From Planctomycetales bacterium (lineage in GTDB: Bacteria; 4484-113; JAFGCY01): 64,000 bases of DNA. The stretch covers positions 3,897,188-3,961,187 of the forward strand of contig CP060262.1 of assembly GCA_022646745.1 (NCBI GenBank). Reading direction: 5' to 3'. The notes under the pieces are model-generated. The model searched no databases. It worked only from the letters and a program-made list of their open reading frames with translations, and was not told the DNA's origin. Below are positions 1,361 through 28,493 of this stretch, piece by piece. Position numbers and translations under genes: made by a program. Position 1 is the first letter of the stretch. Each line of letters begins with the position of its first letter.

Positions 1361-4300
1361 ATGAGAACCGTTATTGTCGGTGCCATTGCACTTGTTATGC
1401 TCTGCCTGGGACTGGCGTCCTGCGGTGGAGGCGGAGGACAGAAGGGACAGTTTGAATTCACCGGGAACCCTGAGCGATTCAGCCTGAACGTGCTTGATGA
1501 CAGCGCACTGGGCGGGGAACTGCACGGTGAGTTCGAACTGAAGCGCCACGACGAGGGGGATACCGTGGTGCTTGAGCTGCAGGGTCGCTCAGTGGAGGAC
1601 CTGCGCGCGCTGTACTGCGAAGTCGAATTCAACCCGAACCTGTTCACCCCCGCCAGTGCGGAACGCAGCACGCTCTTGGGACAGGCCGGCGTACTGGAAC
1701 TGGCGGTGCTGGATGTACCGGGCACCGTCACACATGGCCAGCTGCTGATCCACCCGGATGAGCACAGCGGATTCAGTGGCGACGGCGTACTGGCAACGAT
1801 GCGCTTCACGCGCCGGCCGATGGAGGAGTTCCGCACGGTATCCACACCACCCTCTGACCCGGCCAGCCAGAGCATGCCGCAGTTCGACAGCGTCAGCGGA
1901 GAGCTGAGCTGGCTGTACCGCAGCACCGGCGACTACGACCAAAACGGCCTGATCACGATCTCCGACCTGACACCGATGGGTGTCAACTTCGGCGAGTCTG
2001 ACCCTGATGGATTCGCTGACACCAGCGTGCTGAGCGTGGTGGACGGCGACGGCAACAATGTGATCAACATTTCCGACATCACCCCGATCGGCATCGGCTT
2101 CGGCCGCAGCACCAGTGGCGGCTACAACATCTACCGCAGCGGATCAGCCGATGAATATCCGGCCACTCCCCTGGGAGAGAATGGCAATGGCGCACAGCTG
2201 CTGGGCAACCTGCCGTTCAGTACGGCGGTCGGCAACCCGACGGTGGACCGGCTGGCCTTCAGCTTCGAAGTCAGCGACCCGCAGACCCCCGGCTTCTACT
2301 GGATCCGGCCGCAGGACGGGGCCGGCAACGAGGGTTATGCGTCCACGATGGTCAGCCCGCCGGACGGCAGCCTGCCGGTGCTGAGCGTCCCGCTGCCGCC
2401 GGCCGAGGGCAGTGGCAGCCTGGCGGACCCCTACGTCGTCAAGGCGGATGACAGCGTGCAGTTCATGCTGGTGGACGCGGACTCCAATGACGTGACAACG
2501 GATATGCTCAGCAGCTTCACGGCAACGCCGGCTGAAGCGGCCGGCTTCGGCACGAATGACGGCCTGTTGACGGTCAAGCAGGGCTACGTCGGCGCGTTCA
2601 GCGTCAGTGCAAGCTTCGACGGGCTGTCCGCCGCTCAGGTGATTCGCTTCAGTGTCGGCCCACCGGACGGCAGCCCGGTGGCGATCCTGAATGCCAATAA
2701 GCAGTATGGCTCGATCCCGCTGAGCGTGAGCTTCGATGCCGGCGACTCGCTCTCCCCCGGTGGCGAGGGATTCATCGTGGACTACGCCTTTGACTGGGAG
2801 GATGACGGGGTCTATGACGACTTCGGCACCACCACCGTCAAAAGCCACAGCTACGCCGAGACCGGGCAGTACACGGCACGGCTGCGGGTGACTGACAACA
2901 AGGATCGAACGGCTGAAGCAACACTGAACATCCTGGCATACCTGCCAAACGGCCCGAATGCGCAGCTGGTCGCCACGCCGTTCAACGGGCAGGAACCCCT
3001 CCCGGTGGACCTCGACGCCTCAGGCAGCACGCCGAAGCCCGATACGGAGATCGTGGAGTTCCAGTTCGACTTCGACAACGACTTCGCCTTTGACGACGGC
3101 ACCAACAGCACGGGACTGCTGTCCACCGTGTTCGAGACCGCGGGGGTGATCCCGGCGCGCGTCAAGGTGATCGATGACAACGGGCTGTTCACGGTGGCCG
3201 AGCGCAAGGTCACCGTCAGTGCGAATGCGCCGCCGACTGCACTGCTGGCACTCGACCCTGAGGCACCGTACTACCTGCCGGCCACGATTGACATCGATGC
3301 ATCTGGCAGCTCCGATATTGACGGCAACATCATCGGCTACAGCTTCGACTTCGACGGTGATGGTGAATTTGACTACGAAGGACTGGATGCGAACCACCAG
3401 TACACCTACGACGTGGCCGGTGACTACACGATCACCCTCAAGGTGACTGACAACGGCCAGAAGACCGGCATGCAGAGCATCCCGATCTCAGTGTTCGAGG
3501 ATGACCGGCCGGTGGCTGAGCTGGTGGCGGACGTGACGAGCGGGCTCAACCCGCTGACGGTCAACTTCGATGCGACGGGCAGCACTGACCCGGAGAATAT
3601 GATCGTGGCCTACGAGTGGGACTTCAACGGCGACGGCGACTTCTCCGACCTGAGCGAAACGACAGGCGTGGCGCAGTTCGACTACATCAGCGCCGGCAAC
3701 TTCGAGGCCGGCGTACGGGTGCGGGATGCGGATGACAACACATCGATCGCCACGGTCACGATCGCGGTCACCGAGAACAAGGCACCGAATGCGGACGTGC
3801 GGGCGGACAAGCTCAGCGGCTTCACCCCGGTCACGGTCGAGTTCGACGGCAGCAACAGCACGGACCTGGATGGCACGATTGAGCTGTACGAATGGGACGT
3901 GGACGGCGATGACGACTTCGATGACGGCTATGGCAACGTGGATACGATCAGCATCTTCTACGACAACACCGGCGGAGCCTTCACGATCAAGCTGCGCGTG
4001 ACGGATGACAAATTCAAGAGCAGCACGGACAGCGTGACCGTGAACATCACGAACAACCTCCCGCCGGTGGCTGACATCCAGGCTGATGTGACGAGCGGCT
4101 TCAGGCCCCTGCATGTGAACTTCGACGCCACGGCTTCGATTGACCCGGACGGCACGATCGCCAACTACCGCTGGGACTTCGATTACGACGGTGTGAGCCC
4201 GAGCTTTGAGCTGGAAGGCGCTGAGGACCAGCCGCAGTGGATTTTCAATGATGCAGGCGGTAGCCCGTTTACAGTGCTGCTGGAAGTGATTGACAATGGC

Positions 4301-5950
4301 GGCAAGAGCAGCCAGGCAACGATCGAGATCACAGTGATGGACAATGATGACCCGGAAGCAAGCCTGACTGCTAATGGCATGGTATTCGACCTTAACACTC
4401 CTACGCCAATCGAATTCGACGCATCAGGCAGTATGGACGTCAACGGTGATGTCATCACGGCGGACTGGGACTTTGACGGCGATGGGACCTTTGAGATTGA
4501 AGATGCTGACAAGGAAGTTCCACAGCAGTATTCCGGATGGAGCCTACCCGGCATGTACCTGGCGACGGTGATCATCACTGATGAGCATGGCGCGAGCGAC
4601 TCCGCCATCTGGCCTGTGACGGTCACCGGCGGACAGCCGCCCCCGACCGTGACGATGAGCTCCCCCTGCGTGCAGGGTGAAGCCCCGCTGGCGGTGTACT
4701 TCGATGCCGACGGTTCCGATTCCAACGGCGTGATTGAGAAGTACGAGTTTGACTACGACGGCCCGGTCGGCGGCTGGAACTGGCAGGAGAGCGGCAAGGC
4801 GGACAAGGCCAGTGCGCTGTACACGAATACAGGCACCTACTTCGCCTGGGTGCGCGTGACCGATGACGACGGCGCCTACGGGCTGGCCAGCCTTGAGATC
4901 ACGGTGGATGACCAGTACGACCTGGTGATCGTGGACCCGACGGTGAACAGCTCAGACTGGATGGATGCGGCAATCGTGGATGGCCGGCCGGCGATCGCCT
5001 ATGCCAGCAGCACGAGCCAGCTGCGCTTCGTGATCGCCAATGATGCGCAGGGCACCAGCTGGCAGGATCCGCAGGTGCTGAACACTGACAACGCCTCGCA
5101 CATCAACATCGTCGAACTGGGCAACGGCCGCGCCGGGATCATGTACTACACCTCACTGGCCGGGATGAAGTTCCTGCGTGCGACGGACAGCACCAACAGT
5201 GCCTGGACAAGCCCGGTGGTGGTCGAGGCATCCGCTGACAACAAGGACATGCGGATGATCATGCTGGAGGATGACCACCCGGCGGTGGCCTACTTCGTCG
5301 GCACCAACCTGAAGTACAAGCGCTGCCTGGATGTGGATGGCGACCTGCCGGCCAGCTGGCCGGCCGCCGCGGTGACGATTGACACCACTGCCAGCCAGCC
5401 GATGGAGATGGAGCTGGTTTTCCTGCACCCGGCGATCGCCTACCGTGACGGCTATGCCCGCAGCGCGGACCAGGTCGGCACAAGCTGGCCGGACCTGTAC
5501 AGCACCGGCATCACCGGCGGCAGCTACTACAGCCTGCTGGACGTCGGCAACCAGCCGCGCATCCTACATGACCAGGGCGGCTATTCGCTGGTGGGCTCGA
5601 ATGACAGCGGGGCGACCTGGCCGGTGGACGTCGAGATTGACGGCGGCACCAGCGGCGGGCGTTTCAACACTGGCCTGCACAGCGGTACGCAGTACATCAC
5701 GGCAGCCAGCCGCACGATCAGCGCCAGCAACTTCACGGTGCCGATCTCGCGCCAGTTCTACCTGTTCGATTCGCTGGATGCCGCCGGGAACACATGGAAC
5801 ACGGCATACGCGCTGGACAGCCTGCTGGAGCAGGGGCTGGGGGCCGAGATGCTGGATATCGGCGGCGGCGAGATCGGTGTGGCCTACCGCGGCAGCCATA
5901 ACGGGAACAGCAAGATTCTCAAGTGGCAGGTCACGGCGCAGAACCCCTAG
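1361..5950 (+). CDS. giant surface lipoprotein: cohesin-like N-domain, dockerin-like Ca-binding repeats, ~10 PKD domains, C-terminal BNR/Asp-box beta-propeller
   Basis: ATG 1361 preceded by GGGAGG; lipoprotein signal MRTVIVGAIALVMLCLGLASC; dockerin-like DQNGLITISDLTP and DGDGNNVINISDITP; repeated PKD signature (FDASGS...DG.I..Y.WDFDGDG...Y); Asp-boxes (GTSWQD, NSAWTSP, GTSWPD, SGATWP). Track ORF 1283 is a TTG extension. Confidence 0.85.
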   Translation: MRTVIVGAIALVMLCLGLASCGGGGGQKGQFEFTGNPERFSLNVLDDSALGGELHGEFELKRHDEGDTVVLELQGRSVEDLRALYCEVEFNPNLFTPASAERSTLLGQAGVLELAVLDVPGTVTHGQLLIHPDEHSGFSGDGVLATMRFTRRPMEEFRTVSTPPSDPASQSMPQFDSVSGELSWLYRSTGDYDQNGLITISDLTPMGVNFGESDPDGFADTSVLSVVDGDGNNVINISDITPIGIGFGRSTSGGYNIYRSGSADEYPATPLGENGNGAQLLGNLPFSTAVGNPTVDRLAFSFEVSDPQTPGFYWIRPQDGAGNEGYASTMVSPPDGSLPVLSVPLPPAEGSGSLADPYVVKADDSVQFMLVDADSNDVTTDMLSSFTATPAEAAGFGTNDGLLTVKQGYVGAFSVSASFDGLSAAQVIRFSVGPPDGSPVAILNANKQYGSIPLSVSFDAGDSLSPGGEGFIVDYAFDWEDDGVYDDFGTTTVKSHSYAETGQYTARLRVTDNKDRTAEATLNILAYLPNGPNAQLVATPFNGQEPLPVDLDASGSTPKPDTEIVEFQFDFDNDFAFDDGTNSTGLLSTVFETAGVIPARVKVIDDNGLFTVAERKVTVSANAPPTALLALDPEAPYYLPATIDIDASGSSDIDGNIIGYSFDFDGDGEFDYEGLDANHQYTYDVAGDYTITLKVTDNGQKTGMQSIPISVFEDDRPVAELVADVTSGLNPLTVNFDATGSTDPENMIVAYEWDFNGDGDFSDLSETTGVAQFDYISAGNFEAGVRVRDADDNTSIATVTIAVTENKAPNADVRADKLSGFTPVTVEFDGSNSTDLDGTIELYEWDVDGDDDFDDGYGNVDTISIFYDNTGGAFTIKLRVTDDKFKSSTDSVTVNITNNLPPVADIQADVTSGFRPLHVNFDATASIDPDGTIANYRWDFDYDGVSPSFELEGAEDQPQWIFNDAGGSPFTVLLEVIDNGGKSSQATIEITVMDNDDPEASLTANGMVFDLNTPTPIEFDASGSMDVNGDVITADWDFDGDGTFEIEDADKEVPQQYSGWSLPGMYLATVIITDEHGASDSAIWPVTVTGGQPPPTVTMSSPCVQGEAPLAVYFDADGSDSNGVIEKYEFDYDGPVGGWNWQESGKADKASALYTNTGTYFAWVRVTDDDGAYGLASLEITVDDQYDLVIVDPTVNSSDWMDAAIVDGRPAIAYASSTSQLRFVIANDAQGTSWQDPQVLNTDNASHINIVELGNGRAGIMYYTSLAGMKFLRATDSTNSAWTSPVVVEASADNKDMRMIMLEDDHPAVAYFVGTNLKYKRCLDVDGDLPASWPAAAVTIDTTASQPMEMELVFLHPAIAYRDGYARSADQVGTSWPDLYSTGITGGSYYSLLDVGNQPRILHDQGGYSLVGSNDSGATWPVDVEIDGGTSGGRFNTGLHSGTQYITAASRTISASNFTVPISRQFYLFDSLDAAGNTWNTAYALDSLLEQGLGAEMLDIGGGEIGVAYRGSHNGNSKILKWQVTAQNP

Positions 5951-6203
5951 GCCGGTCGCAACGAAGGAATAACAGGCTCCCCGTGCTCCGGATAACCAGC
6001 CGGATGCGGGGAGCTTTTTCCTGTCCGGCTGAGACAGTCTGCGATTATGTGGGTATTATGTACTTCGCCACGCGGCACAGGGAGCGCGTGCTATGCGTCA
6101 ATACCGCCGTCCGGCGGCACACACGGCCTGTATGGGAGCAGGCCCGGCAGAGCGGGGACCGGCAATAGCCTGAGTCCACTGCGGATCAGGAGTCAGCAGC
6201 TAC

Positions 6204-8033
6204 ATGAAGCACTTCAAGTCCACTGAAGAAGCGGTGCGCTCCCAGAGCGTGCGCGAGCTGCTGCCCAAGATCATCCCGCTGTTCGCCGGCCAGAAGCGCC
6301 TGTTCTTCATCAGCGTCTCCCTGCTGGCCCTGACCACGACCACAGCGCTCGTCGGCCCGCTGGTGCTGCAGCACATCATTGACGTGGCGATCCCCAAGTC
6401 GGACACCAATGAGCTGTGGCTGGCGGCCGGGATCTACCTCGCGGTGATCGCGCTGGGCAGCGTCGTGAGCTACTACCAGGCGATCACCCTGTTCAGCATG
6501 GGAATCCGCATCATCACGGACCTGAAGGAACGGCTGTTCCGGCACGTGCTGTACCTCGGGCTGGGCTTCCACGGCGGCCATCCGCCGGGCAAGCTGATCA
6601 GCCGCGTTGAAAACGACACAGAGACACTAAAGGAACTGTTCGGCGATGTCAGCGTCAACCTGCTGCGCAACTTCGTGCTGTTCTTCGGGATCCTCACCGT
6701 GATGCTGCTGAAGGACCTGCGCATCGCCAGCTACGTGCTGATCATGATCCCGCTCCTGTTCGGCGCCACCTTCTGGTACCTGAACTTCATGAAGAAGTAC
6801 TGGCGCGAGACCCGCGCCCAGGTGGCGATCGTGATCGGCTACATCGCCGAGTACATGCAGGGCATGGATGTCATCCAGCAGTTCAACTACCAGAGGCGCG
6901 CCCGTGAGCGGATGGCGGATGTCAACATGGGCAAGTACCGGATTGACACCCTCAGCCAGTACATCGAGTACGGCTTCTGGGCCGGCTTCATCTTCGGCGA
7001 GATCATCGCGATCTGCGTGGTGCTGGTGGTCGCGATCCAGGGCGTGGTGGACGGCACGGTCAGCCTCGGCATCCTCGTGATGTTCATCGAGTTCATCCGC
7101 CAGATGTTCCAGCCGATCATGGAGCTTTCGGGCCAGCTCAATTTCGTGCAGCGCGGCCTGATCTCAGTCGAGCGCGTGTTTGGCATCCTCGAGACGGAGA
7201 TCTCGATCAAGGACGGCCCGCGCGACCCATCCGAACTGAAGTTCGAACGGGAGATCCGCTTTGAGAATGTCTGGTTCGCCTATGAGGACAATGCTGAGGG
7301 CGAGCCGGAGTGGATCCTGAAGGATGTGTCATTCACGGTCCAGAAGGGCCAGAAGATCGCATTCGTCGGCCCGTCCGGTGGTGGCAAGAGCACGACCATC
7401 AACCTGCTGCTGCGTTTCTATGACCCGCAGCAGGGACGCGTGACAGTGGACGGCATTGACATCCGCGAATTCCCGGTGAAGGCCTGGCGCGAGCTGCTCG
7501 GCCTGGTGCTGCAGGACATCTACCTGTTCCCCGGCAGCGTGAAGGACAACATCCGCGTATTTGACAACAGCATCAGCGATGAACAGGTGCAGAACGTGGC
7601 GCAGATCGCGCGGGCGGACGAGATCGTCGGCAAGCTGAAGGACGGCTATGACGGCGAGCTGGCGGAGCGCGGTGCCAACCTGTCGGTCGGCGAGCGCCAG
7701 CTGCTGAGCTTCGCCCGGGCGCTGGCCTATGATCCGCCGGTGCTTGTGCTGGATGAAGCCACAAGCAGCGTGGACCCGCACACTGAGCAGATGGTGCAGG
7801 AGGCGATCGACCGCCTGCTGGAGGGCCGCACCGCGATGATCGTGGCGCACCGCCTGAGCACGATCCTCAACAGTGACCGGATCCTCGTGATCAAGGGCGG
7901 GCAGCTGGTGGAAAGCGGCACGCATGAGGAGCTGTACCACACTGATGGTGTGTACACCCGGCTCGTCAAGCTGCAGTTCGGCGACAAGAGTGACCAGATC
8001 ACGGCCAACCTGGCGAAGGCGGCAGGGCGATGA
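6204..8033 (+). CDS. ABC transporter permease/ATP-binding protein (type I exporter half-transporter, subunit 1)
   Basis: N-terminal TMD then NBD with Walker A GPSGGGKST, signature LSVGERQLLSFARAL, Walker B VLVLDEATSSVD; AGGAG RBS upstream of ATG. Confidence 0.9.
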   Translation: MKHFKSTEEAVRSQSVRELLPKIIPLFAGQKRLFFISVSLLALTTTTALVGPLVLQHIIDVAIPKSDTNELWLAAGIYLAVIALGSVVSYYQAITLFSMGIRIITDLKERLFRHVLYLGLGFHGGHPPGKLISRVENDTETLKELFGDVSVNLLRNFVLFFGILTVMLLKDLRIASYVLIMIPLLFGATFWYLNFMKKYWRETRAQVAIVIGYIAEYMQGMDVIQQFNYQRRARERMADVNMGKYRIDTLSQYIEYGFWAGFIFGEIIAICVVLVVAIQGVVDGTVSLGILVMFIEFIRQMFQPIMELSGQLNFVQRGLISVERVFGILETEISIKDGPRDPSELKFEREIRFENVWFAYEDNAEGEPEWILKDVSFTVQKGQKIAFVGPSGGGKSTTINLLLRFYDPQQGRVTVDGIDIREFPVKAWRELLGLVLQDIYLFPGSVKDNIRVFDNSISDEQVQNVAQIARADEIVGKLKDGYDGELAERGANLSVGERQLLSFARALAYDPPVLVLDEATSSVDPHTEQMVQEAIDRLLEGRTAMIVAHRLSTILNSDRILVIKGGQLVESGTHEELYHTDGVYTRLVKLQFGDKSDQITANLAKAAGR

Positions 8034-9811
8034 AGCATATCCGCTGGATCTGGCGCTTCTGGCAGCCGCACCGCCCCTGGCTGTACGTGCTGGGTTTCCT
8101 CACACTGCTGAGCAGCGCGGCGACGATCGGCTTCCCGCTGGTGCTCAAGTTCGTGATTGACAACCTCGACGAGAACCTGAAGGACAACCCGAGCCTAGAC
8201 GCCACCGAGCTGACCTACAAGCTGGTGATGATGATCGTGATCGTCGGGCTGGTGCGCAGTGCCTCATGGATCTACCCCGGTGTGCGCGCGCAGGTGAACA
8301 ACCTGCTGGAGAAGGACGTACGCGAGTACTACTTCGGCCAGATCGTGCAGAAGGGCTACCGTTTCTTCCAGAAGTTCCGCACCGGCGACCTGGTGACCCG
8401 GCTCAGTGACGACATCTTCGGTTTCCCGAAGATCGCCTGGTTCTGCTGCTCGGGCATCTTCCGCGCGGTGGAAAGCAGCAGCAAGTTCGTGTTCTGCATG
8501 GCATTCATGTTCTACATGAACTGGCAGCTGGCGCTGTTGGCAATCATCCCGCTGCCGGTGATGCTGATGATCTTCTACCGCATCCGCATGGCGCTGACCA
8601 AGGCCAGTGCGGACCGCCAGCAGATCTTCAGCCGTACGAATGACGAACTGGAAGCCAGCTTCAGCGGGATCCGGATCCTGAAGGCCTTCTGCGGGGAGAT
8701 GCACCAGGTGCGCAACCTGCGCGGCATCCTGGACGAGCGCATCGCCGTCGAGCTGCGCCTGCAGCGATTGTGGATGGGCGTGCGCATGCTCTACCAGGGT
8801 GTGCAGTTCACCGGGCAGATCATCGTGATCGTGGCCGGCGGCTACATGGTGCTCAACGACCAGCTGAAGATCGGTGAGTTCTACGCGTTCTACGTCTACC
8901 TCTCGATCCTGCTGGCACCGCTGATGGACATCCCCAACCTGTTCGTCACCAGCCGCCAGGCCTTCGCCTGCATCGACCGCGAGATCGAGATCGAGGAGAC
9001 GCGTGGCGGCACCGAGGACATCTACACTGGCAGGGACACCGTCGGCCGCATCGAGCGCCTCGCGCTGGAGCGGGCCTCGTTCTGCTTCGACCCCGGCCTG
9101 CCGAATGCGGTTGACAATGTGGACCTCGAACTGGGTAGCGGGCGCAAGATCGCGATCGTCGGCCGCGTCGGCAGCGGCAAGAGCACGCTGCTCAAGGTGG
9201 TGGCCGGGCTGCTGCCGCCGCAGGAAGGGGCGCTGCTTGTCAACGGCAGGCCGCTGACGGAATACGCTCTGGATGACTACCGCCGCCATGTAGGCTACAT
9301 CCCGCAGGAGGCCACGCTGTTCAGCGAAAGTGTCAGTGACAACGTCAGCTTCGGCCGCGAGACTGATGCGGAGATCGTGATCCGCTCACTGGAGATGGCC
9401 CGCGTGCGCACTGAGCTTGAGGCCCTGCCGAAGGGACTGGAGACCGTGCTCGGGCAGAAGGGCCTGACGATCTCCGGCGGGCAGAAGCAGCGCCTGGCGA
9501 TTGCGCGTGCACTGGCCGGGCAGCCGGATGTGCTGCTGATGGACGACTGCACCGCCAGCCTGGATGCGGAGAATGAAAAGGCCTTCTGGGAGCTGCTGCG
9601 TGAGCATTACCCGCAGACCGCCTGCCTGATCGTGACGCACCGCCTGGCAACGGCCCAGGTGGCGGACCTGATCCACGTGATGGAGGACGGGCGGATCGTC
9701 GGCAGCGGTTCGCACATGCAGCTGCTGGCGGAGTGTGAGGCCTACCGCAATTTCCTCAGCCGGGAGGAGATGAAGGCGGACCTGGAGCTGGCGGGTAATG
9801 AAGCAGGCTGA
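8030..9811 (+). CDS. ABC transporter permease/ATP-binding protein (type I exporter half-transporter, subunit 2)
   Basis: Walker A GRVGSGKST, signature ISGGQKQRLAIARAL, Walker B LLMDDCTASLD; start overlaps previous stop (ATGA), consistent with a heterodimeric exporter. Confidence 0.9.
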   Translation: MKHIRWIWRFWQPHRPWLYVLGFLTLLSSAATIGFPLVLKFVIDNLDENLKDNPSLDATELTYKLVMMIVIVGLVRSASWIYPGVRAQVNNLLEKDVREYYFGQIVQKGYRFFQKFRTGDLVTRLSDDIFGFPKIAWFCCSGIFRAVESSSKFVFCMAFMFYMNWQLALLAIIPLPVMLMIFYRIRMALTKASADRQQIFSRTNDELEASFSGIRILKAFCGEMHQVRNLRGILDERIAVELRLQRLWMGVRMLYQGVQFTGQIIVIVAGGYMVLNDQLKIGEFYAFYVYLSILLAPLMDIPNLFVTSRQAFACIDREIEIEETRGGTEDIYTGRDTVGRIERLALERASFCFDPGLPNAVDNVDLELGSGRKIAIVGRVGSGKSTLLKVVAGLLPPQEGALLVNGRPLTEYALDDYRRHVGYIPQEATLFSESVSDNVSFGRETDAEIVIRSLEMARVRTELEALPKGLETVLGQKGLTISGGQKQRLAIARALAGQPDVLLMDDCTASLDAENEKAFWELLREHYPQTACLIVTHRLATAQVADLIHVMEDGRIVGSGSHMQLLAECEAYRNFLSREEMKADLELAGNEAG

Positions 9812-10478
9812 CACCCGCCTGCGCCTGCAGGCCGTGATCTTTGACATGGACGGCCTGTTGATTGACAGCGAACCCTTCTGGCGCGATGCCGAGGTGGCGG
9901 TGCTCAACCCGCTCGGCGTGCCGATCAGCCATGATGACTGCGCCCAGTTCGCCGGCCTTCGCATCCGCGAGGTTGTCGCGAACTGGCGCGAGCTATACCC
10001 CTGGGACGGTGAGTCCACGGAGAGTGTGGCGGACAGGATCCAGCAGCAGCTCTGCGATAGCATCCGCGAGCGCGGGCAGCTGCTGCCCGGTGCACAGGAA
10101 CTGGTCAGGGAGCTGCACGGGCGCGGCTACCCACTGGCGATTGCCACCAGCAGCGCACCGGACGTCGTCGACGCCGTGATGGCGGTCAGCGGACTGCGGG
10201 ACTGCTTCAGGGTGATTGCCAGCGCATCGGACGAGCAGTATGGCAAGCCCCACCCTGCCGTATATCTCAGTGCAGCCGGCCGGCTCGGCGTCGAGCCGCA
10301 GCACTGCCTGGTGTTCGAGGATGCCCTGCTGGGGATCATCTCCGCCAAGGCGGCGCGGATGACCGTTGTCGCCGTGCCTGAGGAGCTGAACCATGGCGAT
10401 GTTCGCTTCCAGCTGGCTGACCGGGTGATTGAAAGTCTCAGGGATTTCTGGGAAGATGCAGGGGAGCTGCTGGGCTGA
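9798..10478 (+). CDS. HAD-superfamily hydrolase (beta-phosphoglucomutase/sugar-phosphatase-like)
   Basis: HAD motif I VIFDMDGLLIDSEP with catalytic DxD; overlaps end of ABC gene (same operon). Confidence 0.85.
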   Translation: MKQADTRLRLQAVIFDMDGLLIDSEPFWRDAEVAVLNPLGVPISHDDCAQFAGLRIREVVANWRELYPWDGESTESVADRIQQQLCDSIRERGQLLPGAQELVRELHGRGYPLAIATSSAPDVVDAVMAVSGLRDCFRVIASASDEQYGKPHPAVYLSAAGRLGVEPQHCLVFEDALLGIISAKAARMTVVAVPEELNHGDVRFQLADRVIESLRDFWEDAGELLG

Positions 10479-10501
10479 ACCTCCGGCAGTGGAGGACCAG
10501 C

Positions 10502-10978
10502 ATGACTGACAACGCCAATCCAGATGCCAGGCCACAGGCCCGCATCAACTTCATCTACCTGCACGCGACTGACATGGAGGCGATGCGTGCCTTCTACAAG
10601 GATGCGCTGGGCTGCAGCGAGATCCACTACCGGCCGGTGGATGAGCATGGCTACGGCTGGTCGGTGATCGACATGGGCTGCTTCCAGTTCATGATCCATC
10701 CTGACAAGTCAGCCGTGAAGCTGGAGGGCTGGAGCATGCAGCCGGGCTGGGACGGCGGGACGGTACCGGGGATTTCCTGGAGCGTCGTTGTCAGGAATGA
10801 GGACATGCCGCAGGTGATTGTCAGGCTGCGTGAGATGCGCGCCCCGGCCTTCGATGAGGAACCGCAGTGGTGCCAGGACAGTTACTGGAGCTACCCGGTG
10901 CAGGACCCGATGGGCAACACGGTGGAAGTGCACAGCATACCGGATGAAAGGCCGGAGAGCACTGTGTGGACTGATTAG
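10502..10978 (+). CDS. VOC (glyoxalase/bleomycin-resistance fold) family protein
   Basis: 158 aa; N-terminal INFIYLHATDMEAMRAFYKDALGC and C-terminal DPMGNTVEV resemble VOC-fold motifs; assignment by pattern only. Confidence 0.5.
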   Translation: MTDNANPDARPQARINFIYLHATDMEAMRAFYKDALGCSEIHYRPVDEHGYGWSVIDMGCFQFMIHPDKSAVKLEGWSMQPGWDGGTVPGISWSVVVRNEDMPQVIVRLREMRAPAFDEEPQWCQDSYWSYPVQDPMGNTVEVHSIPDERPESTVWTD

Positions 10979-11000
10979 GTTGGAGGTTTGAGTTGGGAGG

Positions 11001-11025
11001 TTGGAGAGTAAGACAACATCTCCAA
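11001..11025. terminator. hairpin between convergent genes (VOC / lpd)
   Basis: TTGGAGA (11001-11007) pairs with TCTCCAA (11019-11025) around an 11-nt loop; AT-rich stem, so a weak terminator call. Confidence 0.3.
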
Positions 11026-11050
11026 AGTCCCCACTCCAAACGCAAAACGC

Positions 11051-12460: not shown

Positions 12461-12522
12461 AGCAGGCGAACTGCTGTCTGCGCATTGCGCCGGTGTTGAT
12501 TAATCAGGTGATGGAACGCAGC

Positions 12523-12834: not shown

Positions 12835-12848
12835 GCGGTTCCTCCTTG

Positions 12849-16913: not shown

Positions 16914-17152
16914 ATCCCGATAAGGCCAAATTCCTGATTTCCCGGCAGACAATATAAACAAAACAGCCCTCACCCGACCCTGCGGAAACAGTGTGGGTGA
17001 AGGTCAAACCTCACCGGGATGCATACCTCTGGCTTCTGAAGTGTACCATCGGTATAAGGTGCGATATCGTGCCTTAGGCTAATTTAGCCAGCGTTTTTCC
17101 CTGATTGGATCTAATGCTTAGCCAGTCTGCTAATTAAAACCAGCGGGAGCCT

Positions 17153-18355: not shown

Positions 18356-18371
18356 GTATTACCATACTGCC

Positions 18372-19094: not shown

Positions 19095-19095
19095 G

Positions 19096-20691: not shown

Positions 20692-20693
20692 AC

Positions 20694-21392: not shown

Positions 21393-21431
21393 TTGTCAGG
21401 AATATACCGACCGAAGGTCAGATTGTCATCA

Positions 21432-22094
21432 TCATCTGGATGTTTTCACGCCGATTTTAGGACATTGAGCACTGATTAAACAGCGGCTGCACCAGGGGCT
21501 GACCGGGTTGCAGACCTGCTGGCCGTGGTTGACAAGCACACGGTTCAGGGTGGCCCAGTGCTTCTCGTCGATGATATCCATCAGGGCGAACTCGCTCTGC
21601 TCCGGGGTCTCAGTCTCGATCCAGCCGAGCCGGTTGCAGATCCGGTGCACGTGCGTGTCAACGCAGATCGCCGGGATGTCAAAGCAGATGTTCAGCACGA
21701 GGTTGGCAACCTTGCGGCCGACTCCGGGCAGCATGAGCAGCTCATCACGGGTGCGCGGAATCTCCCCGCCGAAGTCATTGATCAGCATCTCGCACATGGA
21801 ATGCAGGTTTTTCGCCTTCGCATTGTAGAAGCCGACCGGCTTGAGCAGCAGGGCCAGCTGGGTCTCCGGGATTGCCAGGATTCCCTCCGGAGTCCTGGCA
21901 ACGGCCCACAGCCTGGCAATCGCATCATTGGTGACCGGGTCCTTTGTGCGCGCGGACAGGATCGTGCCGACGAGCACCCGGAATGGGTCATCAGGTGTCA
22001 CATCCAGTGGATGGGTGGTGTAGAGCTTCGACAGCTTGTTGAAGAATGCGGTCGCAGCCTGTTTGCTGGGAGCTTTGGGGTAGTCGCCTGACAC
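21432..22094 (-). CDS. nth: endonuclease III (HhH-GPD DNA glycosylase with 4Fe-4S cluster loop)
   Basis: HhH-GPD region (LLMLPGVGRKVANLVL), C-terminal Cys cluster CNPVSPWCSRCLISAQC. Confidence 0.88.
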   Translation of the reverse strand: MSGDYPKAPSKQAATAFFNKLSKLYTTHPLDVTPDDPFRVLVGTILSARTKDPVTNDAIARLWAVARTPEGILAIPETQLALLLKPVGFYNAKAKNLHSMCEMLINDFGGEIPRTRDELLMLPGVGRKVANLVLNICFDIPAICVDTHVHRICNRLGWIETETPEQSEFALMDIIDEKHWATLNRVLVNHGQQVCNPVSPWCSRCLISAQCPKIGVKTSR

Positions 22095-22282
22095 CGGGAA
22101 ATGCTATCAGATGCCCCTGTTCATCTGTTTTTAACTTCATTTGTTAAATAGATGTCAAAACCGGGTTAACAGTCCAAATCAGCAAAGTTTCACGCCTATA
22201 CTGCGCAACGAACTGCCTCAGGCAGGGCTCGATAGACCACACAGGTTCAATTGACTGAATTCGAAAGTGACCAAGACTGTAG

Positions 22283-23935
22283 ATGTTCAAACAAGCTGAA
22301 CAGGATGGCCGGTTCTCCGAGGCAACCAAGGCATCACCGAATGTGCTGCCAGTCGACGCACGCATGTGTCCGGTTCCTGACAGCGCTGAACTGCTTTCGC
22401 AGACCGCCTCAAGTTTGGATGAAGGCCTGTGCATCATTGACAGTGATGGACGGCTGATCTTTGCAAATGAATCACTGCGCAAAATGGTCCATGAACAGCA
22501 CTCGATCGAAGGTCGCTTGCTTCCCGATGTGATTCCGCACCATGAGCGCTTCAAGCTGCAGGTCCATATGAAGCGGATCTGCCGTGGTGAACGTCAGAGC
22601 CTTGAACTGACCCTGTCTGACATCAGCGGCCAGACACGCAATGTGCTGGTCAGCACCGGTCCGTGCCAGGATGCCGGAAGTGTATACAACTTCGTGATGT
22701 TCACTGACATCACTTCCATCAGGCGCGCTGAGCAGGAAAAGCTCTACCTGATGGAACAGGTCCTCGGTTCCCGCCACATGGACCGGATCGGGACCCTTGC
22801 CGGCGGCCTGAGCCACGAGATGAACAATATCCTGCAGGTAATCCGCGCCAACGCCGAGTATTGCCAGCTGCTGGCTTCCGAGCCTGGAATGCCGCGGGAA
22901 AAACTGCAGGACATCATTGCCAGCACCCAGCGGGCCGAACGGATCCTCAAGCAGTTGCTGAGCTTCAGCAAGGACGAGCAGCCGGATGGCAGCGAGTTCA
23001 GGATGTCTGAGCTTGTGCGTCGCGTGATAGGTGTTGCTGCCCTGAGGAAATCAATTCCAGCCGGATGCAGCCTCGAGCTACTTACCCAGAATGACCTGTT
23101 GAAGGCTGACGAGCAGCAGATTGAACAAGTACTGGTACAGCTGATCCGCAATGCGATGCAGTACCTCCCTGAAGAGTCCGGGATACTGCGGATCAGGCTG
23201 GCTGACCCGACTGAGAGCATGCTCGACCGCCTGCCGGTGGCTGACTGCCGGCTTGAGAACTACCTGCTGATTGAGGTCCAGGACAATGGTGCCGGGATCC
23301 CCGGTGAGTACATCGACCGTATTTTCGACCCCTTCTTCACTACGCGGTCCGTTGGCCAGGGATTCGGCCTTGGTCTGACCATGGTGATGGGCATCGTAAG
23401 CTCCCTGGGTGGTGCAATCTGGGCCAGCCCAGTCCATGGAGGTGGAACATGCATCAGGATCATGCTGCGCCGGGTGCCTGCCAAGAGCACGGTTGAGCCT
23501 GTCGCACATGCACTCGCACCAGAGTTCCGGGTGATGCTCGTCGATGATGAGGAGATGATACTGCGCCTTGGACGCCGCATGCTTATGAAATCCGGCATGG
23601 ATGTTTTTGCAACAACTGACCCGCATGAAGCACTGCATGAGCTGCAGACCAATGCAGGTTCGTATGCACTGCTAGTCACGGACCAGAACATGCCTGAATT
23701 CAATGGAATGGACCTGGCTGAGGCTGCGCGCTATGCCAATCCCGAGATCAAGGTAGTGCTGTGCACGGGCTACACGCCGGACCTGGATGAGGAAAGAATA
23801 TCCGAACTGGAGATTGACGCAGTGCTGGCCAAGCCTTTTGACATCCACGAGCTAAGCAGGCTGGCACAGAAGTTGCTTGAAGCCGGGGCTGTGAACAGTG
23901 GCAGCTGTCCCGATTCCGTTTACCGATCAGCCTGA
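22283..23935 (+). CDS. hybrid sensor histidine kinase (PAS - HisKA - HATPase_c - receiver)
   Basis: H-box LSHEMNNILQVI, G-box VQDNGAGIP / GQGFGLGL, C-terminal receiver domain (VMLVDDEEM...LLVTDQNMPEFNG). Confidence 0.85.
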   Translation: MFKQAEQDGRFSEATKASPNVLPVDARMCPVPDSAELLSQTASSLDEGLCIIDSDGRLIFANESLRKMVHEQHSIEGRLLPDVIPHHERFKLQVHMKRICRGERQSLELTLSDISGQTRNVLVSTGPCQDAGSVYNFVMFTDITSIRRAEQEKLYLMEQVLGSRHMDRIGTLAGGLSHEMNNILQVIRANAEYCQLLASEPGMPREKLQDIIASTQRAERILKQLLSFSKDEQPDGSEFRMSELVRRVIGVAALRKSIPAGCSLELLTQNDLLKADEQQIEQVLVQLIRNAMQYLPEESGILRIRLADPTESMLDRLPVADCRLENYLLIEVQDNGAGIPGEYIDRIFDPFFTTRSVGQGFGLGLTMVMGIVSSLGGAIWASPVHGGGTCIRIMLRRVPAKSTVEPVAHALAPEFRVMLVDDEEMILRLGRRMLMKSGMDVFATTDPHEALHELQTNAGSYALLVTDQNMPEFNGMDLAEAARYANPEIKVVLCTGYTPDLDEERISELEIDAVLAKPFDIHELSRLAQKLLEAGAVNSGSCPDSVYRSA

Positions 23936-24271
23936 AATCGAATTGTCACGAACAAAATCCACCAGCCGCGCGAATTCCTCGCGGAGTTCGGTGAATTTAC
24001 GTTCTGCGCCGTCCAGGCTGTCCTCCCGTCCCATATGCTCTAGGTCCGCTGACAGTGCAGCCATCCTTGATGCAAGCAATTCTGCGCTGCTGCCCTTCAC
24101 TGCGTGGGAATCCTGCCTGAGCTTCTGTGCATCCCCTGCTGCAATGCTGTTGCCGATTTCAGTGATCAGCCCTTCGCATACATCTATGTAGTCCTGCACG
24201 ATCTCCTGCCAGATCTCGGCATCCCCAAGACGTGCTATTCCTCCGGCAACATCAAGCGGTGACTGCTCCAC
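23927..24271 (-). CDS. Hpt (histidine phosphotransfer) domain protein
   Basis: Conserved HAVKGSSAELLASRMA motif with phospho-acceptor His; GTG start with GGAG 8 nt upstream; convergent with hybrid kinase. Confidence 0.7.
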   Translation of the reverse strand: MEQSPLDVAGGIARLGDAEIWQEIVQDYIDVCEGLITEIGNSIAAGDAQKLRQDSHAVKGSSAELLASRMAALSADLEHMGREDSLDGAERKFTELREEFARLVDFVRDNSISG

Positions 24272-24472
24272 GGTTCACTCCAATTCGCTACAAGCAAGTA
24301 ATACGCCTCAGGCGCATGATAGTGCGTAGAGCCTACAGTCAGGACTTTTCCGGCGGGTACATATATAATGTTAACTGGGTGAAATCCAGGTCTGCCAGGG
24401 TTCCCCCTACTCCAGGGCCACAATCCTTCCAACGGCAGCCTTCTGGTTTGGCACATTCAGCGAGGTACTTCT

Positions 24473-25105
24473 ATGCTCAGACGCCGACTGGCATACATCA
24501 TTCCCAGCCTGACGCTGGTCATGACCGCGATGCTGTTCATCGCATGCGGTGGTAACGGTGGACCGATCCAGCAGGAGCAACTGAATGCCGCTCCCCAGGT
24601 GGACCGCCAGCTTCCGCAGCAGGAACAGCTTGCCGATGGGGCCGGCCTGCCCTTCGCAAATGGCGATGCGGGTTCAAACCTTGTCACCCTGCGTACACCG
24701 TCACTTGCTGAACTGGGTGCCGGTGATGAATTCACGGTCCGGCTGGACGTGGACCTCCGTGAGGAAGTACACCAGGGTGTACTGCGACTGATGTTTGACA
24801 GCCAGGACATGCAGCCCGTCGAGGTTGTGCCGGGGTCCATGCTGCCCTCCGGCATGGTCCGGATTGCCGACCTCGACAAGCCGGGATTCATTCCGCTGGC
24901 CTTCACGGCCCTGCCGGGTGGCACTGACGTGGCCGCCGGCAGCGGTGAGCTGTTCAGCATTCGCTTCCGCCTGCTGAAGGCCGGCAATGAAGCCGGACGG
25001 ATTTCCTTCATCAGTGACAACGACTTCCTGCAGCTGCGAGACCGCGATGGCGAGCGCCTGCGCTTCAACCTCGGAACCGAGGCGGGAGGCAGTGATGTCA
25101 ATTAA
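24473..25105 (+). CDS. cohesin-like domain lipoprotein
   Basis: Lipoprotein signal ...MLFIACGG; beta-sandwich pattern resembling cohesin modules (GDEFTVRLDVDL...VLRLMFDSQDMQPVEVVPGSML...ELFSIRFRLLKAGNEAGRISF). Confidence 0.45.
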   Translation: MLRRRLAYIIPSLTLVMTAMLFIACGGNGGPIQQEQLNAAPQVDRQLPQQEQLADGAGLPFANGDAGSNLVTLRTPSLAELGAGDEFTVRLDVDLREEVHQGVLRLMFDSQDMQPVEVVPGSMLPSGMVRIADLDKPGFIPLAFTALPGGTDVAAGSGELFSIRFRLLKAGNEAGRISFISDNDFLQLRDRDGERLRFNLGTEAGGSDVN

Positions 25106-28100
25106 GCACATCCTCCTTCTCAGCATCCTTGCCATCCTGCTTGGCAGCAATGCCGCGCTTGCCACCTACCCGCCCCCGGAAGGCATGCTTGAGCGCATGG
25201 CGCAGGAAGGCACCCTGGCCGATGCCCAGGAGTTTGCCCGCCAGCTTGGCAACCATGAAATGAAGCGTCCAAAGCGCGGAGCGCTGGACATTGACCAGTA
25301 CAGCCCGCAGCAGGTCGCGGACCTGATTTCCGCAAACCTCGGTCGCAGCCTCGATGAGCGCACCACGAGCGAAGTCGGTAAGATGACCAGCACTGAGCTG
25401 GCCTGGGTCGAACTGGACCTGAACCACGACGGGATGGTTGATGAGCGTGACCTGCTGGTGCTCGGCCATCCGCAACCGAAACAGACAGCCACGATCCCAA
25501 GCCTCGGCTACAACAAGATGCTGACGATCCTGATCGAGTTCCCGGACTACCCGCAGTATTTCGATCCGCAGTCAATCCATGACGTCTGCTACAGCCCGAC
25601 CCCGCTGCCGAACTACCACCTTGGCAGCATGCGCTGGTTCTACGACCAGGCCAGCTATGGTGCATGCACCCTCGATGGCGACACCTTCGGCTGGTATATG
25701 GCACAGAACCCCCGCACCTACTACCATCCCGATGACAACAGCGGCGGAGGCAAGCGCGAGGAGCTGATCCTCGAGGCCTGTGACGCGGCCGATGCTGCGG
25801 GACTCGACTTCAATGACTACGATAACGATGGCGACGGTGTAGTGGACGAATTCATCGTGATCTGGACCGGCCCGCATGGCGACTGGGCAACCTTCTGGTG
25901 GGGCTACCACACCGGGATGGGCAACGGCAAGACCTACGACGGCGTGCGCCTCGGCAGCTATTCCTGGCAGTGGGAGCGCGGCTACTACTTCAACAACGAA
26001 CCCCCGACTCCCGACATCTGGAGTGCGGACGTAGTGATCCACGAGACTGGCCACGGCTTCGGCCTGCCGGACTACTACGACTATGACGGCAGTGTCGGAC
26101 CGGACGGCGGTGTTGGCTCAATGGACCGCATGGATGGTTACCGCGGTGAACATGGCTGCTTCTCCAAGTACATCCTCGGCTGGCTGCAACCGACGATCGC
26201 ATACACGAACCTCGATGACGAAGCATTGGATGTGGCGGATGCCAACCCGGACTGCGTGCTGTTCATGCCGGGCTATGACCCGGCCACGCCCTGGGACGAA
26301 TATTTCATGGCCCAGAACCGCGGGCGCGGCGGGATCGACTACCAGATGCCAACGGACGGCGTGCTGATCTGGCATGCTGATGCCCGCCTGAATGCAGGTG
26401 GTGGCTTCCTGTTCAACAACAGCTATACCGACCACAAGCTGATCCGCCTGATGGAAGCTGACGGACTCGAGGAGATCGAGAACGGCCCGAACCACAGCGG
26501 TGATGCAGGCGACTACTATGACCTCGGCGAAAGCCTCGCTCCCGGCACGACTCCCAGCAGTGACGGATACGATGCCCCGACCGGCATGGTGGTGGACGAC
26601 ATCTCGGCTGACGGCGCCACGATGACGGCGGACTTCACGCTTTACCCGACCGCCCCGCCGACGGTGACCCTCAGTGGAATCACACCGGGCAGCACGGTCA
26701 GTGGCAACGTTCCGCTGACGATCACGACGACCTCAGCTGCGGGTATAGCGGAGATCCAGCTCTGGGTGGATGGAGTACTGGTGGACGTGAAGACCGGTTC
26801 CGGCAGCTCCACTCCGCTGTGGAACACGCTGGTGGACTTCAACAAGACGATGGACGTGATGGCCCGGGCCTACGATGTGAATGGCCAGAGCGCCACTGAC
26901 ACCGTGAGCGTCACTGTCAGCAACAGCGGCGTGGTGAGCTTTGCCGACTACTTCAACATCGGCTTCAAGCTGTGGCGCAGCATCAACTTCCCGGACGTGC
27001 GCCGCGGCACCTGGACACAGTGGGAGACCCGGGCCTGCCCGGCCAGCCCGCCGCCGATCTCCGGTGGCAACGAGGCCTACGTGGCCCCGATGCTGAATGA
27101 CAATGAGTGGCACAACGCGCTGGACAACCTGCGCAGCCAGCGTGTCAACGCGGTGGACTTCGAATACCTCGTGAGCATCAGCTTCGAGTACCGCGCCCGT
27201 GACGGATTCTCCCTGTGGTACACGACTGACGAGGGGCAGAACTGGACCCTGCTTGACAACCTCACGCAGACGAACGACTGGTCCACCTACAACCGGGTGG
27301 TGGACCTGCGCGGCAGCCAGTTCTACCTGGAGTTCCGCTACAGCGGCAACGTGCGCGGTGATAACCAGAGCGGCCGTGGGGCGAACATCGACAACATCAG
27401 CGTGCATGAGGCTCCGAGTGACCCGCCGACCGTGCAGATCACGAGCCACGTTGATGGCGACCACATCAGCAACAGTACACTGTTCACGGCGGACGCGAAC
27501 GACGACTTCGGCATCGATCACGTGGATTTCTACGTGAATGGCGGACTGGCCTTCACTGACAGCGAGGCGCCGTATGAATACGAACGCAATCTGGTCAACG
27601 ATGACAACCGCCCGGACATCCCGGTCAGGGTGGTCGCCACCGACAGTGACGGCCTGACCAGTGTGCCGGACGAGGTCGCGATCAGCTGGGACACGGAGCG
27701 CCCGTTCCCACTGTTTGACGACTGTGAGATCAGCGATGACACAGGCCCGAACGCCTGGTCATTCCAGAATGGCGGAAGCTCAGTACCGAACTGGCAGTGG
27801 AGCACGGCGGACGCTTTCAGCGGCGTGCAGTCGATGGCCTGGACCGGCGACGGCAGCTTCTCCGGTGACAGTGAGGGCGTCTGGTTCTGGGGCAGCCGCG
27901 GGGTGAGCGAGGGCCGGATCTGCGTCGACCTTGCCAACCCGAAGGTCGTGGATCCGGTGCTGCGCTACAAGATGACAGGAAACTTCCCGGATGGCAGCGG
28001 CCGCGGCCTGTACCTCTACACCACATGGTATGGCTGGGAGCAGATCGGTGGCTGGGGTGACAACTGGGCTGAGTGGACCGATGTTGAGTTCGACCTGTCA

Positions 28101-28493
28101 GGCCGCATCGGCCACAGTGGCCGCATCGTCTGGTGGGTGTTCGGCTCCAGTGGCGACGCAGCCGGCATCTGGCTTGATGATGTTGAGGTCACGAATGCCA
28201 CTCCGGTGATTGACAGCATCAGCCCAGGCATCGCGATTGACGGCGAGATCATCACCCTGAGCGGACTGGGCTTCAGCAGCTGCGACATCTCGAAGCAGCT
28301 CAACTTCACCGAGGGAACCGTGCTGATGCCGCTGGACGTCGTGAGCTGGACCGATGAGGAGATCCAGTTCGCCGTACCTGCCGGGGCGCGCGGTGGCAAC
28401 CTGAGCGTGACCGTCAACGGCCGCCAGAGCAATGAGGTGAGCCTTGTTGTCAGGCTGGCCAGCCCGCAGCTGACGGAGATCGGCGGACTGTAA
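25095..28493 (+). CDS. secreted M6-family (immune inhibitor A-like) zinc metalloprotease with dockerin-like repeat and C-terminal Ig/IPT-like domains
   Basis: Signal peptide MSIKHILLLSILAILLGSNAALA; zincin motif VVIHETGHGFGLPDYYDYDG; dockerin-like LDLNHDGMVDERDLLVL; ATG 25095 with GGGAGG upstream (track ORF 24987 is an extension). Confidence 0.8.
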   Translation: MSIKHILLLSILAILLGSNAALATYPPPEGMLERMAQEGTLADAQEFARQLGNHEMKRPKRGALDIDQYSPQQVADLISANLGRSLDERTTSEVGKMTSTELAWVELDLNHDGMVDERDLLVLGHPQPKQTATIPSLGYNKMLTILIEFPDYPQYFDPQSIHDVCYSPTPLPNYHLGSMRWFYDQASYGACTLDGDTFGWYMAQNPRTYYHPDDNSGGGKREELILEACDAADAAGLDFNDYDNDGDGVVDEFIVIWTGPHGDWATFWWGYHTGMGNGKTYDGVRLGSYSWQWERGYYFNNEPPTPDIWSADVVIHETGHGFGLPDYYDYDGSVGPDGGVGSMDRMDGYRGEHGCFSKYILGWLQPTIAYTNLDDEALDVADANPDCVLFMPGYDPATPWDEYFMAQNRGRGGIDYQMPTDGVLIWHADARLNAGGGFLFNNSYTDHKLIRLMEADGLEEIENGPNHSGDAGDYYDLGESLAPGTTPSSDGYDAPTGMVVDDISADGATMTADFTLYPTAPPTVTLSGITPGSTVSGNVPLTITTTSAAGIAEIQLWVDGVLVDVKTGSGSSTPLWNTLVDFNKTMDVMARAYDVNGQSATDTVSVTVSNSGVVSFADYFNIGFKLWRSINFPDVRRGTWTQWETRACPASPPPISGGNEAYVAPMLNDNEWHNALDNLRSQRVNAVDFEYLVSISFEYRARDGFSLWYTTDEGQNWTLLDNLTQTNDWSTYNRVVDLRGSQFYLEFRYSGNVRGDNQSGRGANIDNISVHEAPSDPPTVQITSHVDGDHISNSTLFTADANDDFGIDHVDFYVNGGLAFTDSEAPYEYERNLVNDDNRPDIPVRVVATDSDGLTSVPDEVAISWDTERPFPLFDDCEISDDTGPNAWSFQNGGSSVPNWQWSTADAFSGVQSMAWTGDGSFSGDSEGVWFWGSRGVSEGRICVDLANPKVVDPVLRYKMTGNFPDGSGRGLYLYTTWYGWEQIGGWGDNWAEWTDVEFDLSGRIGHSGRIVWWVFGSSGDAAGIWLDDVEVTNATPVIDSISPGIAIDGEIITLSGLGFSSCDISKQLNFTEGTVLMPLDVVSWTDEEIQFAVPAGARGGNLSVTVNGRQSNEVSLVVRLASPQLTEIGGL

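Follow-up and report, generated by a model that had tools for sequence, protein, structure and literature searches.

Organization of the locus

The window analyzed here is the whole 64,000-nucleotide stretch of contig CP060262.1 shown above, and the subject of this report is three of its proteins that bear cohesin- and dockerin-like modules. Two of them are encoded by overlapping genes on the forward strand, hereafter the cohesin-M6 cassette: a small lipoprotein of 210 residues with one cohesin domain (24473-25105) and a secreted M6 metalloprotease of 1,132 residues (25095-28493). The third is a giant lipoprotein of 1,529 residues, also on the forward strand (1361-5950), in which a cohesin domain and a dockerin-like module precede a series of PKD repeats. 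At the genome level, the closest match is “UBP7 HKST-UBA01,” a metagenome-assembled genome (92% protein identity for the small lipoprotein), and the host is placed in the uncultured candidate phylum UBP7 rather than in Bacillota.

A first-pass annotation of the window had named these three proteins and quoted their characteristic motifs, all of which were found at the coordinates it gave, and had treated the proteins together under the span 1361-28493. A single system across this span has been rejected because the intervening genes are housekeeping genes: the segment 5950-24470 codes for ABC transporters, a HAD hydrolase, the E1, E2 and E3 components of 2-oxoglutarate dehydrogenase, a radical-SAM enzyme, SpoIID and a hybrid histidine kinase. 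The gene for the giant protein lies 18.5 kilobases from the cassette, and nothing ties its product to the other two proteins.

The calcium-loop pattern D.[DN].[DN][GNDS].[IVLM]...[DE] occurs exactly three times among the 36 proteins of the window (19,372 residues), in each case at a site that the annotation had pointed out, as compared with an expectation of 0.15 +/- 0.39 occurrences in shuffled sequences; none of 300 shuffles reached three. Two such loops within 60 residues of one another arose in one of 2,000 shuffles of the giant protein. Local hidden Markov models (HMMs) applied to all six reading frames detected no cohesin or dockerin modules in the window outside the three proteins, and neither module was returned when ten further proteins of the window, the two other giant ones among them, were scanned against Pfam.

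A lipoprotein with a single cohesin domain

The small lipoprotein comprises a signal peptide, a linker and one globular domain. The signal peptide (24473-24547; residues 1-25) ends in the lipobox FIAC, whose cysteine, Cys25, is the putative site of lipid modification, and it is followed by a segment rich in Gln, Pro and Glu (residues 26-66) that is predicted to be disordered, with a predicted local distance difference test score (pLDDT) below 50 for residues 26-64. The lipobox conforms to the bacterial lipoprotein pattern [LVIF][ASTVI][GAS]C, as does the LASC of the giant protein. Cys25 is invariant, along with A24 and G27, in 15 homologues of the small lipoprotein, and a family of 51 members retains it in at least 90% of cases. 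Both lipoboxes were called from motif and conservation, and lipidation is a prediction.

The remainder of the protein (24674-25090; residues 68-206) is modeled by AlphaFold2 as a β-sandwich of nine strands, with pLDDT above 90 throughout. A Foldseek search of the PDB with the small lipoprotein returned cohesins as all of the top 50 matches (E from 1.6e-7, TM-score up to 0.78), among them the non-cellulosomal cohesins of Archaeoglobus and Clostridium perfringens. The predicted fold is thus compatible with the cohesin β-sandwich, in line with the earlier description of this protein as essentially one cohesin module.

Family profiles agree with the modeled fold. Among 14 close homologues, three have a precomputed PF00963 match that passes the Pfam Cohesin threshold, and one has already been labeled “cohesin domain-containing protein” by the automated annotation at NCBI; 10 of 15 family members match Pfam Cohesin at E<0.01. 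The best matches of the family profile to PDB sequences are the cohesins 1g1k and 2vn5 (E=0.006). When the profile is compared with 1.84 billion representative proteins, the first ~40 matches are small proteins of 190-215 residues, after which it reaches proteins with 5-9 Pfam Cohesin repeats (E from 2e-22 to 1e-16), one of them a scaffoldin that combines CBM3 and X2 with seven cohesins. On the strength of the model and of these profiles, the small lipoprotein appears to carry a real cohesin domain.

The pattern of conservation within the domain is uneven. With strands numbered from the AlphaFold2 model and its alignment with 1g1k, residues shared by at least 90% of the 51 members include Q101 and R105 in strand 3, P141, A143, F144 and T145 in strand 6, and L186, Q187, L188 and R189 in strand 8. 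Across the same members, mean conservation is 0.66 in strand 3, 0.74 in strand 6 and 0.85 in strand 8, as compared with 0.46-0.53 for strands 1, 2, 4 and 9. In known cohesins, strands 8-3-6-5 form the dockerin-binding face, and the most conserved strands of the family, as aligned, belong to this face. Calcium-dependent dockerin binding by the small lipoprotein would be in keeping with these strands and with the coupling of its gene to that of the M6 protease, both of which support it indirectly.

A conserved cohesin-M6 gene pair

The second gene of the cassette encodes a metalloprotease of the InhA/PrtV type. The protein matches TIGR03296 (E=1e-41; 143.7 bits against a cut-off of 110.8), Pfam Peptidase_M6 (35.4 bits against a cut-off of 22) and Big_7, and its catalytic domain (25527-26375; residues 145-427, the extent of the TIGR03296 match) contains the HEXXH zinc motif as HETGH (26040-26054; residues 316-320). 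A sequence search of the PDB with the full protein yielded FN3-like modules and no M6 structure. The start codon is most likely that at 25095, not the upstream in-frame ATG at 24987. This placement puts the start 11 nucleotides before the stop codon of the lipoprotein gene, and it yields a signal peptide (25095-25163) that begins MSIKH and is predicted to be cleaved at ALA/TYPPP. Between the signal peptide and the catalytic domain is a domain resembling a pro-region (25164-25499; residues 24-135); the M6 models, whose matches begin at residue 140-145, leave it uncovered, and it is conserved among orthologues.

The pairing of these two genes recurs well beyond the window. Loci with the pair comprise the window itself, L001/L007, L002/L003, L004/L005, L006, L008, L009, L010-L015, L016/L017, L019 and L020, and in every related locus that continues beyond the cohesin gene, an M6 gene abuts or overlaps it on the same strand, its start falling from 11 nucleotides before to 1 nucleotide after the point where the cohesin-lipoprotein gene ends. 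Other neighbors vary among these loci, and GC content ranges from 36% to 68%. Approached from the other side, with the M6 protease's N-terminal domain as the query, a metagenome scan found six loci (L010-L015), all six with a cohesin gene directly upstream; a protein search with the same domain (133 residues) had one fragment as its sole match. A functional link between lipoprotein and protease is strongly backed by this conserved and apparently translationally coupled gene order.

Two of the loci contain canonical dockerins in addition. The M6 orthologue in L002 (L002 8588-12424) possesses a two-repeat C-terminal dockerin (residues 1223-1269; Dockerin_1 33.1 bits, cut-off 22.9) where the window protein has a TIG tail, while retaining the N-terminal calcium loop described below, with Arg at position 6. 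In L019, the gene immediately after the cohesin-M6 pair (9542-10579) codes for TIG repeats and a Dockerin_1 domain, and its product is a possible second client of the cohesin in that lineage.

The gene for the hybrid histidine kinase (22283-24271; PAS, HisKA, HATPase and receiver domains) lies just upstream of the cassette in the window and is followed by an open reading frame of 114 codons on the opposite strand, an arrangement that recurs in L001. The kinase may regulate the cassette, though only in this lineage.

The giant lipoprotein as a cohesin-dockerin protein

The giant protein begins, from an ATG at 1361, with a signal peptide and the lipobox LASC (1361-1423; Cys21). A cysteine after a hydrophobic N-terminus is present in seven of eight homologues (set A2), and the eighth, P0021, is truncated at its N-terminus. 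The signal peptide is followed by a cohesin-fold domain (1472-1918; residues 38-186) and a dockerin-like module (1931-2116; residues 191-252), and then by a spacer of ~200 residues, ~8 PKD repeats (roughly 2720-4915; PKD_4 E=9e-63 in eight stretches) and a C-terminal domain of ~345 residues (4916-5947). The sole match of the C-terminal domain is a faint one to BNR_2 (E=0.2); its sequence is repetitive to the eye, and it may be a β-propeller.

The AlphaFold2 model of residues 1-300 (pLDDT 85; predicted TM-score 0.77) contains a β-sandwich at residues 40-185, and cohesins fill the top of the corresponding structure search. As a single sequence, this domain matches Pfam Cohesin at E=0.054, and an hhalign comparison of its family with that of the small lipoprotein gives a probability of 84.6% (E=6.8e-6). 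The domain at 1472-1918 thus combines a cohesin fold with detectable cohesin homology, and its reading as a cohesin in the first-pass annotation is upheld by fold and family profile alike.

The adjoining module consists of two duplicated segments of ~22 residues, each with an EF-hand-type calcium loop of 12 residues and a helix, as is the case in dockerins. Loop 1, DYDQNGLITISD (1931-1966), and loop 2, DGDGNNVINISD (2042-2077), both have Asp or Asn at positions 1, 3 and 5 and Asp at position 12, and the duplicated 23-residue segments are identical at 13 of 23 positions. The model places helices at residues 200-208, 223-227 and 237-246 (pLDDT 90-95), each loop being directly followed by a helix, with a further helix in the linker. 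The module, W.Y...GDYDQNGEVNISDLTPLG.HFG...VVDGDGNGEINI.DITPIG.NFG, is conserved in 28 homologues, and eight of 31 homologues match Pfam Dockerin_1 (best 1.1e-9). A profile of the untrimmed N-terminal region (A2) gave only weak calmodulin matches in the PDB; dockerins emerged after trimming to the module itself (A4), with 4fl4_A, a type I dockerin of C. thermocellum, as the best match (E=2.2e-5), in a single stretch spanning both loops. Further matches of A4 are to the dockerins 1clc, 2y3n_B, 4u3s_B and 2ccl_B, interleaved with calmodulins that score nearly as well. The giant protein therefore begins with a cohesin-dockerin pair, its two-repeat dockerin character, which had been proposed from the tandem loops, being established at the level of the family. 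One homologue of the N-terminal region, P0015, was seen to contain a dockerin-like module of the form W.Y..DYDQN...DGD.NGEINISDLTP twice and a cohesin-like domain once.

These results bear on the idea that the cohesin-like domains of this organism are generic β-sandwich modules, for carbohydrate binding or as spacers, with no cohesin-dockerin interaction taking place at all. Such an explanation is highly improbable. Cohesins occupy the whole top of both structure searches, the family profile of the small lipoprotein reaches true scaffoldins at E=2e-22, and dockerin-type modules co-occur on the same and neighboring proteins.

The N-terminal loop of the protease as a candidate contact site

The M6 protease contains one calcium loop, DLNHDGMVDERDLLVLG (residues 108-124), which lies ahead of the catalytic domain and forms part of a dockerin-type loop-plus-helix segment, DLNHDGMVDERDLLVLGHPQ (25416-25475; residues 108-127). 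Conservation in this segment is concentrated toward the helix: [IV]DERD[LV]L.LG is invariant in 12 distinct M6 orthologues, drawn from genomes of 36% to 68% GC, whereas loop positions 1-6 drift, and the motif remains unchanged even as the partner cohesins drop to an overall identity of 24-37%. Among the invariant residues are loop positions 10-11 (E-R), which are reported, in work by Carvalho and colleagues of 2003, to be the main cohesin contacts in type I dockerins. In addition, the top PDB matches of the loop profile are dockerins rather than calmodulins. Taken alone, and judged from its sequence, the segment is a calcium loop plus helix of dockerin flavor and no more; the dockerin-like loop of the first-pass annotation holds in this narrower sense, one such loop and helix being present, and the segment falls below threshold as a dockerin module.

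The reading that we favor, with somewhat better than even confidence, is that the window contains two separate non-cellulosomal cohesin-dockerin items, the cohesin-M6 cassette and the giant PKD lipoprotein as an adaptor, and that the M6 protease is captured through its loop. In the cassette, a single lipid-anchored cohesin on a flexible linker would be translated together with a Sec-secreted M6 zinc metalloprotease in fixed proportion. The cohesin would then capture the protease by way of the conserved calcium loop and helix in the N-terminal pro-region, keeping the enzyme, or its zymogen, at the membrane. Judging from gene order and conservation, the small cohesin lipoprotein probably holds the M6 protease at the cell envelope, and the tether would lie either at the cell surface or at the periplasmic face of a membrane. 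The giant protein would present a membrane-proximal cohesin-dockerin pair in the manner of a monovalent adaptor scaffoldin, and conceivably it could bind itself, form chains with its own copies or bind other partners.

A number of observations weigh against this reading. Matches of single sequences to the relevant models are weak: the small lipoprotein scores 22.4 bits with Pfam Cohesin PF00963 (E=1.6e-4; cut-off 24.1 bits), and the loops of the giant protein by themselves give no Dockerin_1 match and reach EF-hand_1 at E=0.022 at most. Family profiles and predicted structures settle the identity of both cohesins and of the giant protein's dockerin, but they do not settle that of the M6 loop. 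The latter matches the second half of Pfam Dockerin_1 (positions 35-52 of the 57 in the model) at E=0.047, its 14.3 bits falling short of the 22.9-bit cut-off, and a profile of five M6 orthologues finds its best PDB match in the C. acetobutylicum dockerin 6kg9 at E=0.029 over one repeat; neither Pfam Dockerin_1 nor the PDB provides a significant dockerin profile match for 25416-25475. An hhalign comparison of the M6 N-terminal domain with the dockerin family of the giant protein aligned 25 columns at 2% probability. Two duplicated loop-plus-helix segments were not found in the M6 protein, which contains a single repeat only. Position 6 of the loop is Arg or Asp, not Gly, in L002, L004, L012, L014 and L020, and calcium sites of the DxDxDG type are common in many unrelated contexts. 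Moreover, the region of PrtV that is equivalent to the site of the M6 loop is removed during maturation (PMC2613228, PMC4815223), and so, by analogy, a tether through such a removable pro-region might be transient. Finally, a location at the cell surface would depend on the envelope type of UBP7 and is conjectural.

A degenerate two-repeat dockerin at M6 residues 64-127 was also considered, and this idea was dropped because of the hhalign result given above. Moreover, its first “repeat” (DIDQYSPQQVAD), in the stretch upstream of the loop (DIDQYSPQQVADLISANLG), loses its calcium ligands in orthologues.

The conserved pairing of the two genes could also reflect a different relationship, in which the cohesin-fold lipoprotein is a dedicated inhibitor of the M6 protease, or a chaperone for its folding or export, and binds the catalytic domain or propeptide rather than a dockerin-type site. 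The overlapping stop and start codons of the conserved pair imply one-to-one stoichiometry, which is typical of protease-inhibitor pairs; the small β-barrel inhibitors AprI/Inh, for instance, are encoded beside serralysins. The failure of the M6 loop to reach significance as a dockerin is consistent with this relationship, as is the synthesis of M6 proteases as pro-proteins that need controlled activation (PMC4815223). However, both fold and profile place the lipoprotein inside the cohesin family, for which dockerin binding is the only established function, and its best conserved strands are those of the dockerin-binding face. A long disordered tether with a lipid anchor fits display better than inhibition, and one orthologue of the protease (L002) has gained a canonical dockerin. 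On balance, a role as inhibitor or chaperone is doubtful.

Alternatively, the M6 loop could be a structural calcium site only, with the partner of the small cohesin being the two-repeat dockerin of the giant PKD protein, or one on another protein of the genome, and with the adjacency of the cohesin and M6 genes reflecting co-regulation only. The full two-repeat dockerin on the giant protein speaks for this possibility, as do the commonness of single DxDxDG loops as calcium sites and the canonical dockerins on or beside the M6 gene in L002 and L019, which indicate that full dockerins exist in these lineages. Set against these points, 18.5 kilobases and a run of housekeeping genes separate the gene for the giant protein from the cassette, to which no evidence connects this protein. 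By comparison, the surroundings of the cohesin gene are entirely different in L002, L004, L016 and L019, and the M6 gene alone stays with it throughout. The invariant part of the loop, too, is the helix-proximal DERDLL.LG, which extends beyond the calcium ligands. This alternative is considered unlikely.

Within the preferred reading of capture through the M6 loop, the fate of the tether would depend on processing. If the N-terminus is processed as in PrtV, the tether would hold the zymogen and the mature enzyme would be released. A more specific version of this scheme is a release-on-activation latch, in which the cohesin holds the zymogen at the membrane through the pro-region loop and cleavage of the propeptide both activates and frees the enzyme. 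We regard the latch as improbable, but, if true, it would constitute a minimal system of one cohesin and one enzyme, conserved across several uncultured phyla, and would give cohesin-dockerin pairs a role beyond multi-enzyme scaffolds.

Other genes in the window

Downstream of the M6 gene on the reverse strand (28504-38472) are eight consecutive paralogous genes for proteins of ~380-456 residues with lipoprotein-like N-termini and matches to PQQ_2/BamB-like β-propellers. This array follows the M6 gene in the window and in L001, but not in L002, L004, L016 or L019. Another eight consecutive genes, on the forward strand (38864-49384), encode proteins of 392-882 residues, most of them apparently paralogous, and an N-terminal motif of the “NPLPA.WQL” type is visible in three; scans of three of the eight against Pfam gave no match. 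Two very large proteins are encoded next on the forward strand, one of 1,370 residues with a lipoprotein-like N-terminus (49462-53574) and one of 1,750 residues (53788-59040). Neither matches a Pfam family at E<=0.01, and local HMMs detect no cohesin or dockerin in them. Beyond these, at 59336-59989 (forward strand), is a protein of 217 residues with a BsuPI proteinase-inhibitor domain (E=4.6e-18), in a position unrelated to the M6 cassette.

Comparison with known cohesin-dockerin systems and M6 proteases

Non-cellulosomal cohesins and dockerins have been cataloged since 2009, and their roles are largely unknown. In the cassette described here, the genes for a cohesin and for a candidate enzyme partner stand side by side in a constant order, in genomes whose GC content extends from 36% to 68%, and the partner is therefore one half of a specific pair rather than a guess from a long list. 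The cassette is valuable chiefly because it provides two small constructs, a specific and genetically defined pair, for direct binding tests. Should the interaction be real, cohesin-dockerin tethering would extend to lipoprotein anchors, to proteases as cargo and to N-terminal single-repeat ligands, and it would provide a first functional handle on the surface proteins of the uncultured phylum UBP7. Should it not be, the cassette would instead suggest that the cohesin fold has a new function, for example as a protease inhibitor or chaperone. In the literature outside subscription journals, no description was found of a conserved operon or cassette of a single-cohesin lipoprotein and an M6 protease, nor any paper that treats immune inhibitor A and dockerin together.

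A general precedent is the set of cohesin- and dockerin-like modules outside cellulosomes that was surveyed by Peer et al. (2009; FEMS Microbiol Lett 291:1), which, as cited in PMC10066038, occur on non-cellulolytic proteins of diverse phyla, in some cases with both modules on one protein, as in the giant lipoprotein. The non-cellulosomal cohesins of Archaeoglobus fulgidus (2xdh) and Clostridium perfringens (2jh2, 2vo8) are among the structural matches obtained here, and 2w1n is a further known cohesin of C. perfringens.

Similar comparisons can be drawn with the type I systems of clostridial cellulosomes (C. thermocellum CipA/OlpA/OlpC; PDB 1ohz, 4fl4, 3ul4 and 4dh2; C. acetobutylicum 6kgc). 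The nine-strand cohesin fold is common to both window domains, the dockerin built from a duplicated calcium loop and helix is also present in the giant protein, and the logic of a cell-anchored cohesin and a secreted enzyme would be shared. Unlike clostridial cellulosomes, the window contains no glycoside hydrolases, carbohydrate-binding modules or multi-cohesin scaffoldins. The predicted anchor is a lipid-modified cysteine rather than an S-layer homology domain or a sortase signal, the cargo is a protease, and the putative contact on that cargo is a single repeat at the N-terminus.

In the giant protein, the direct joining of one cohesin to one dockerin on a large multidomain protein recalls monovalent adaptor scaffoldins and Coh1-Doc1 units (PMC11557425). 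In ScaO-type proteins the Coh-Doc unit is C-terminal and belongs to a cellulosome, whereas in the giant protein it is N-terminal, next to the lipid anchor, and is followed by PKD repeats. For the M6 loop, a precedent for a one-loop cohesin ligand exists in the group-2 truncated dockerins of Ruminococcus flavefaciens, which have a single calcium-coordinating loop and bind the ScaE cohesin (PMC12270676). Those modules are C-terminal and recognizably derived from dockerins, whereas the M6 loop belongs to a pro-region at the N-terminus and falls short of significance with dockerin models.

The protease itself can be compared with InhA of Bacillus and PrtV of Vibrio cholerae, with which it shares the HEXXH catalytic domain and calcium dependence. 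The layout is also shared, namely a multidomain pre-pro-protein that has a helical domain at its N-terminus and Ig-like domains at its C-terminus (PMC4815223). PrtV undergoes both N- and C-terminal processing (PMC4815223, PMC2613228), and its N-terminal domain, situated where the window protease has its pro-region-like domain, consists of two helices and a disordered tail, with no known partner or function (PMC4815223). The window protease differs from PrtV in that its N-terminal region contains a conserved calcium loop and helix, and in that its gene is coupled to that of a cohesin lipoprotein.

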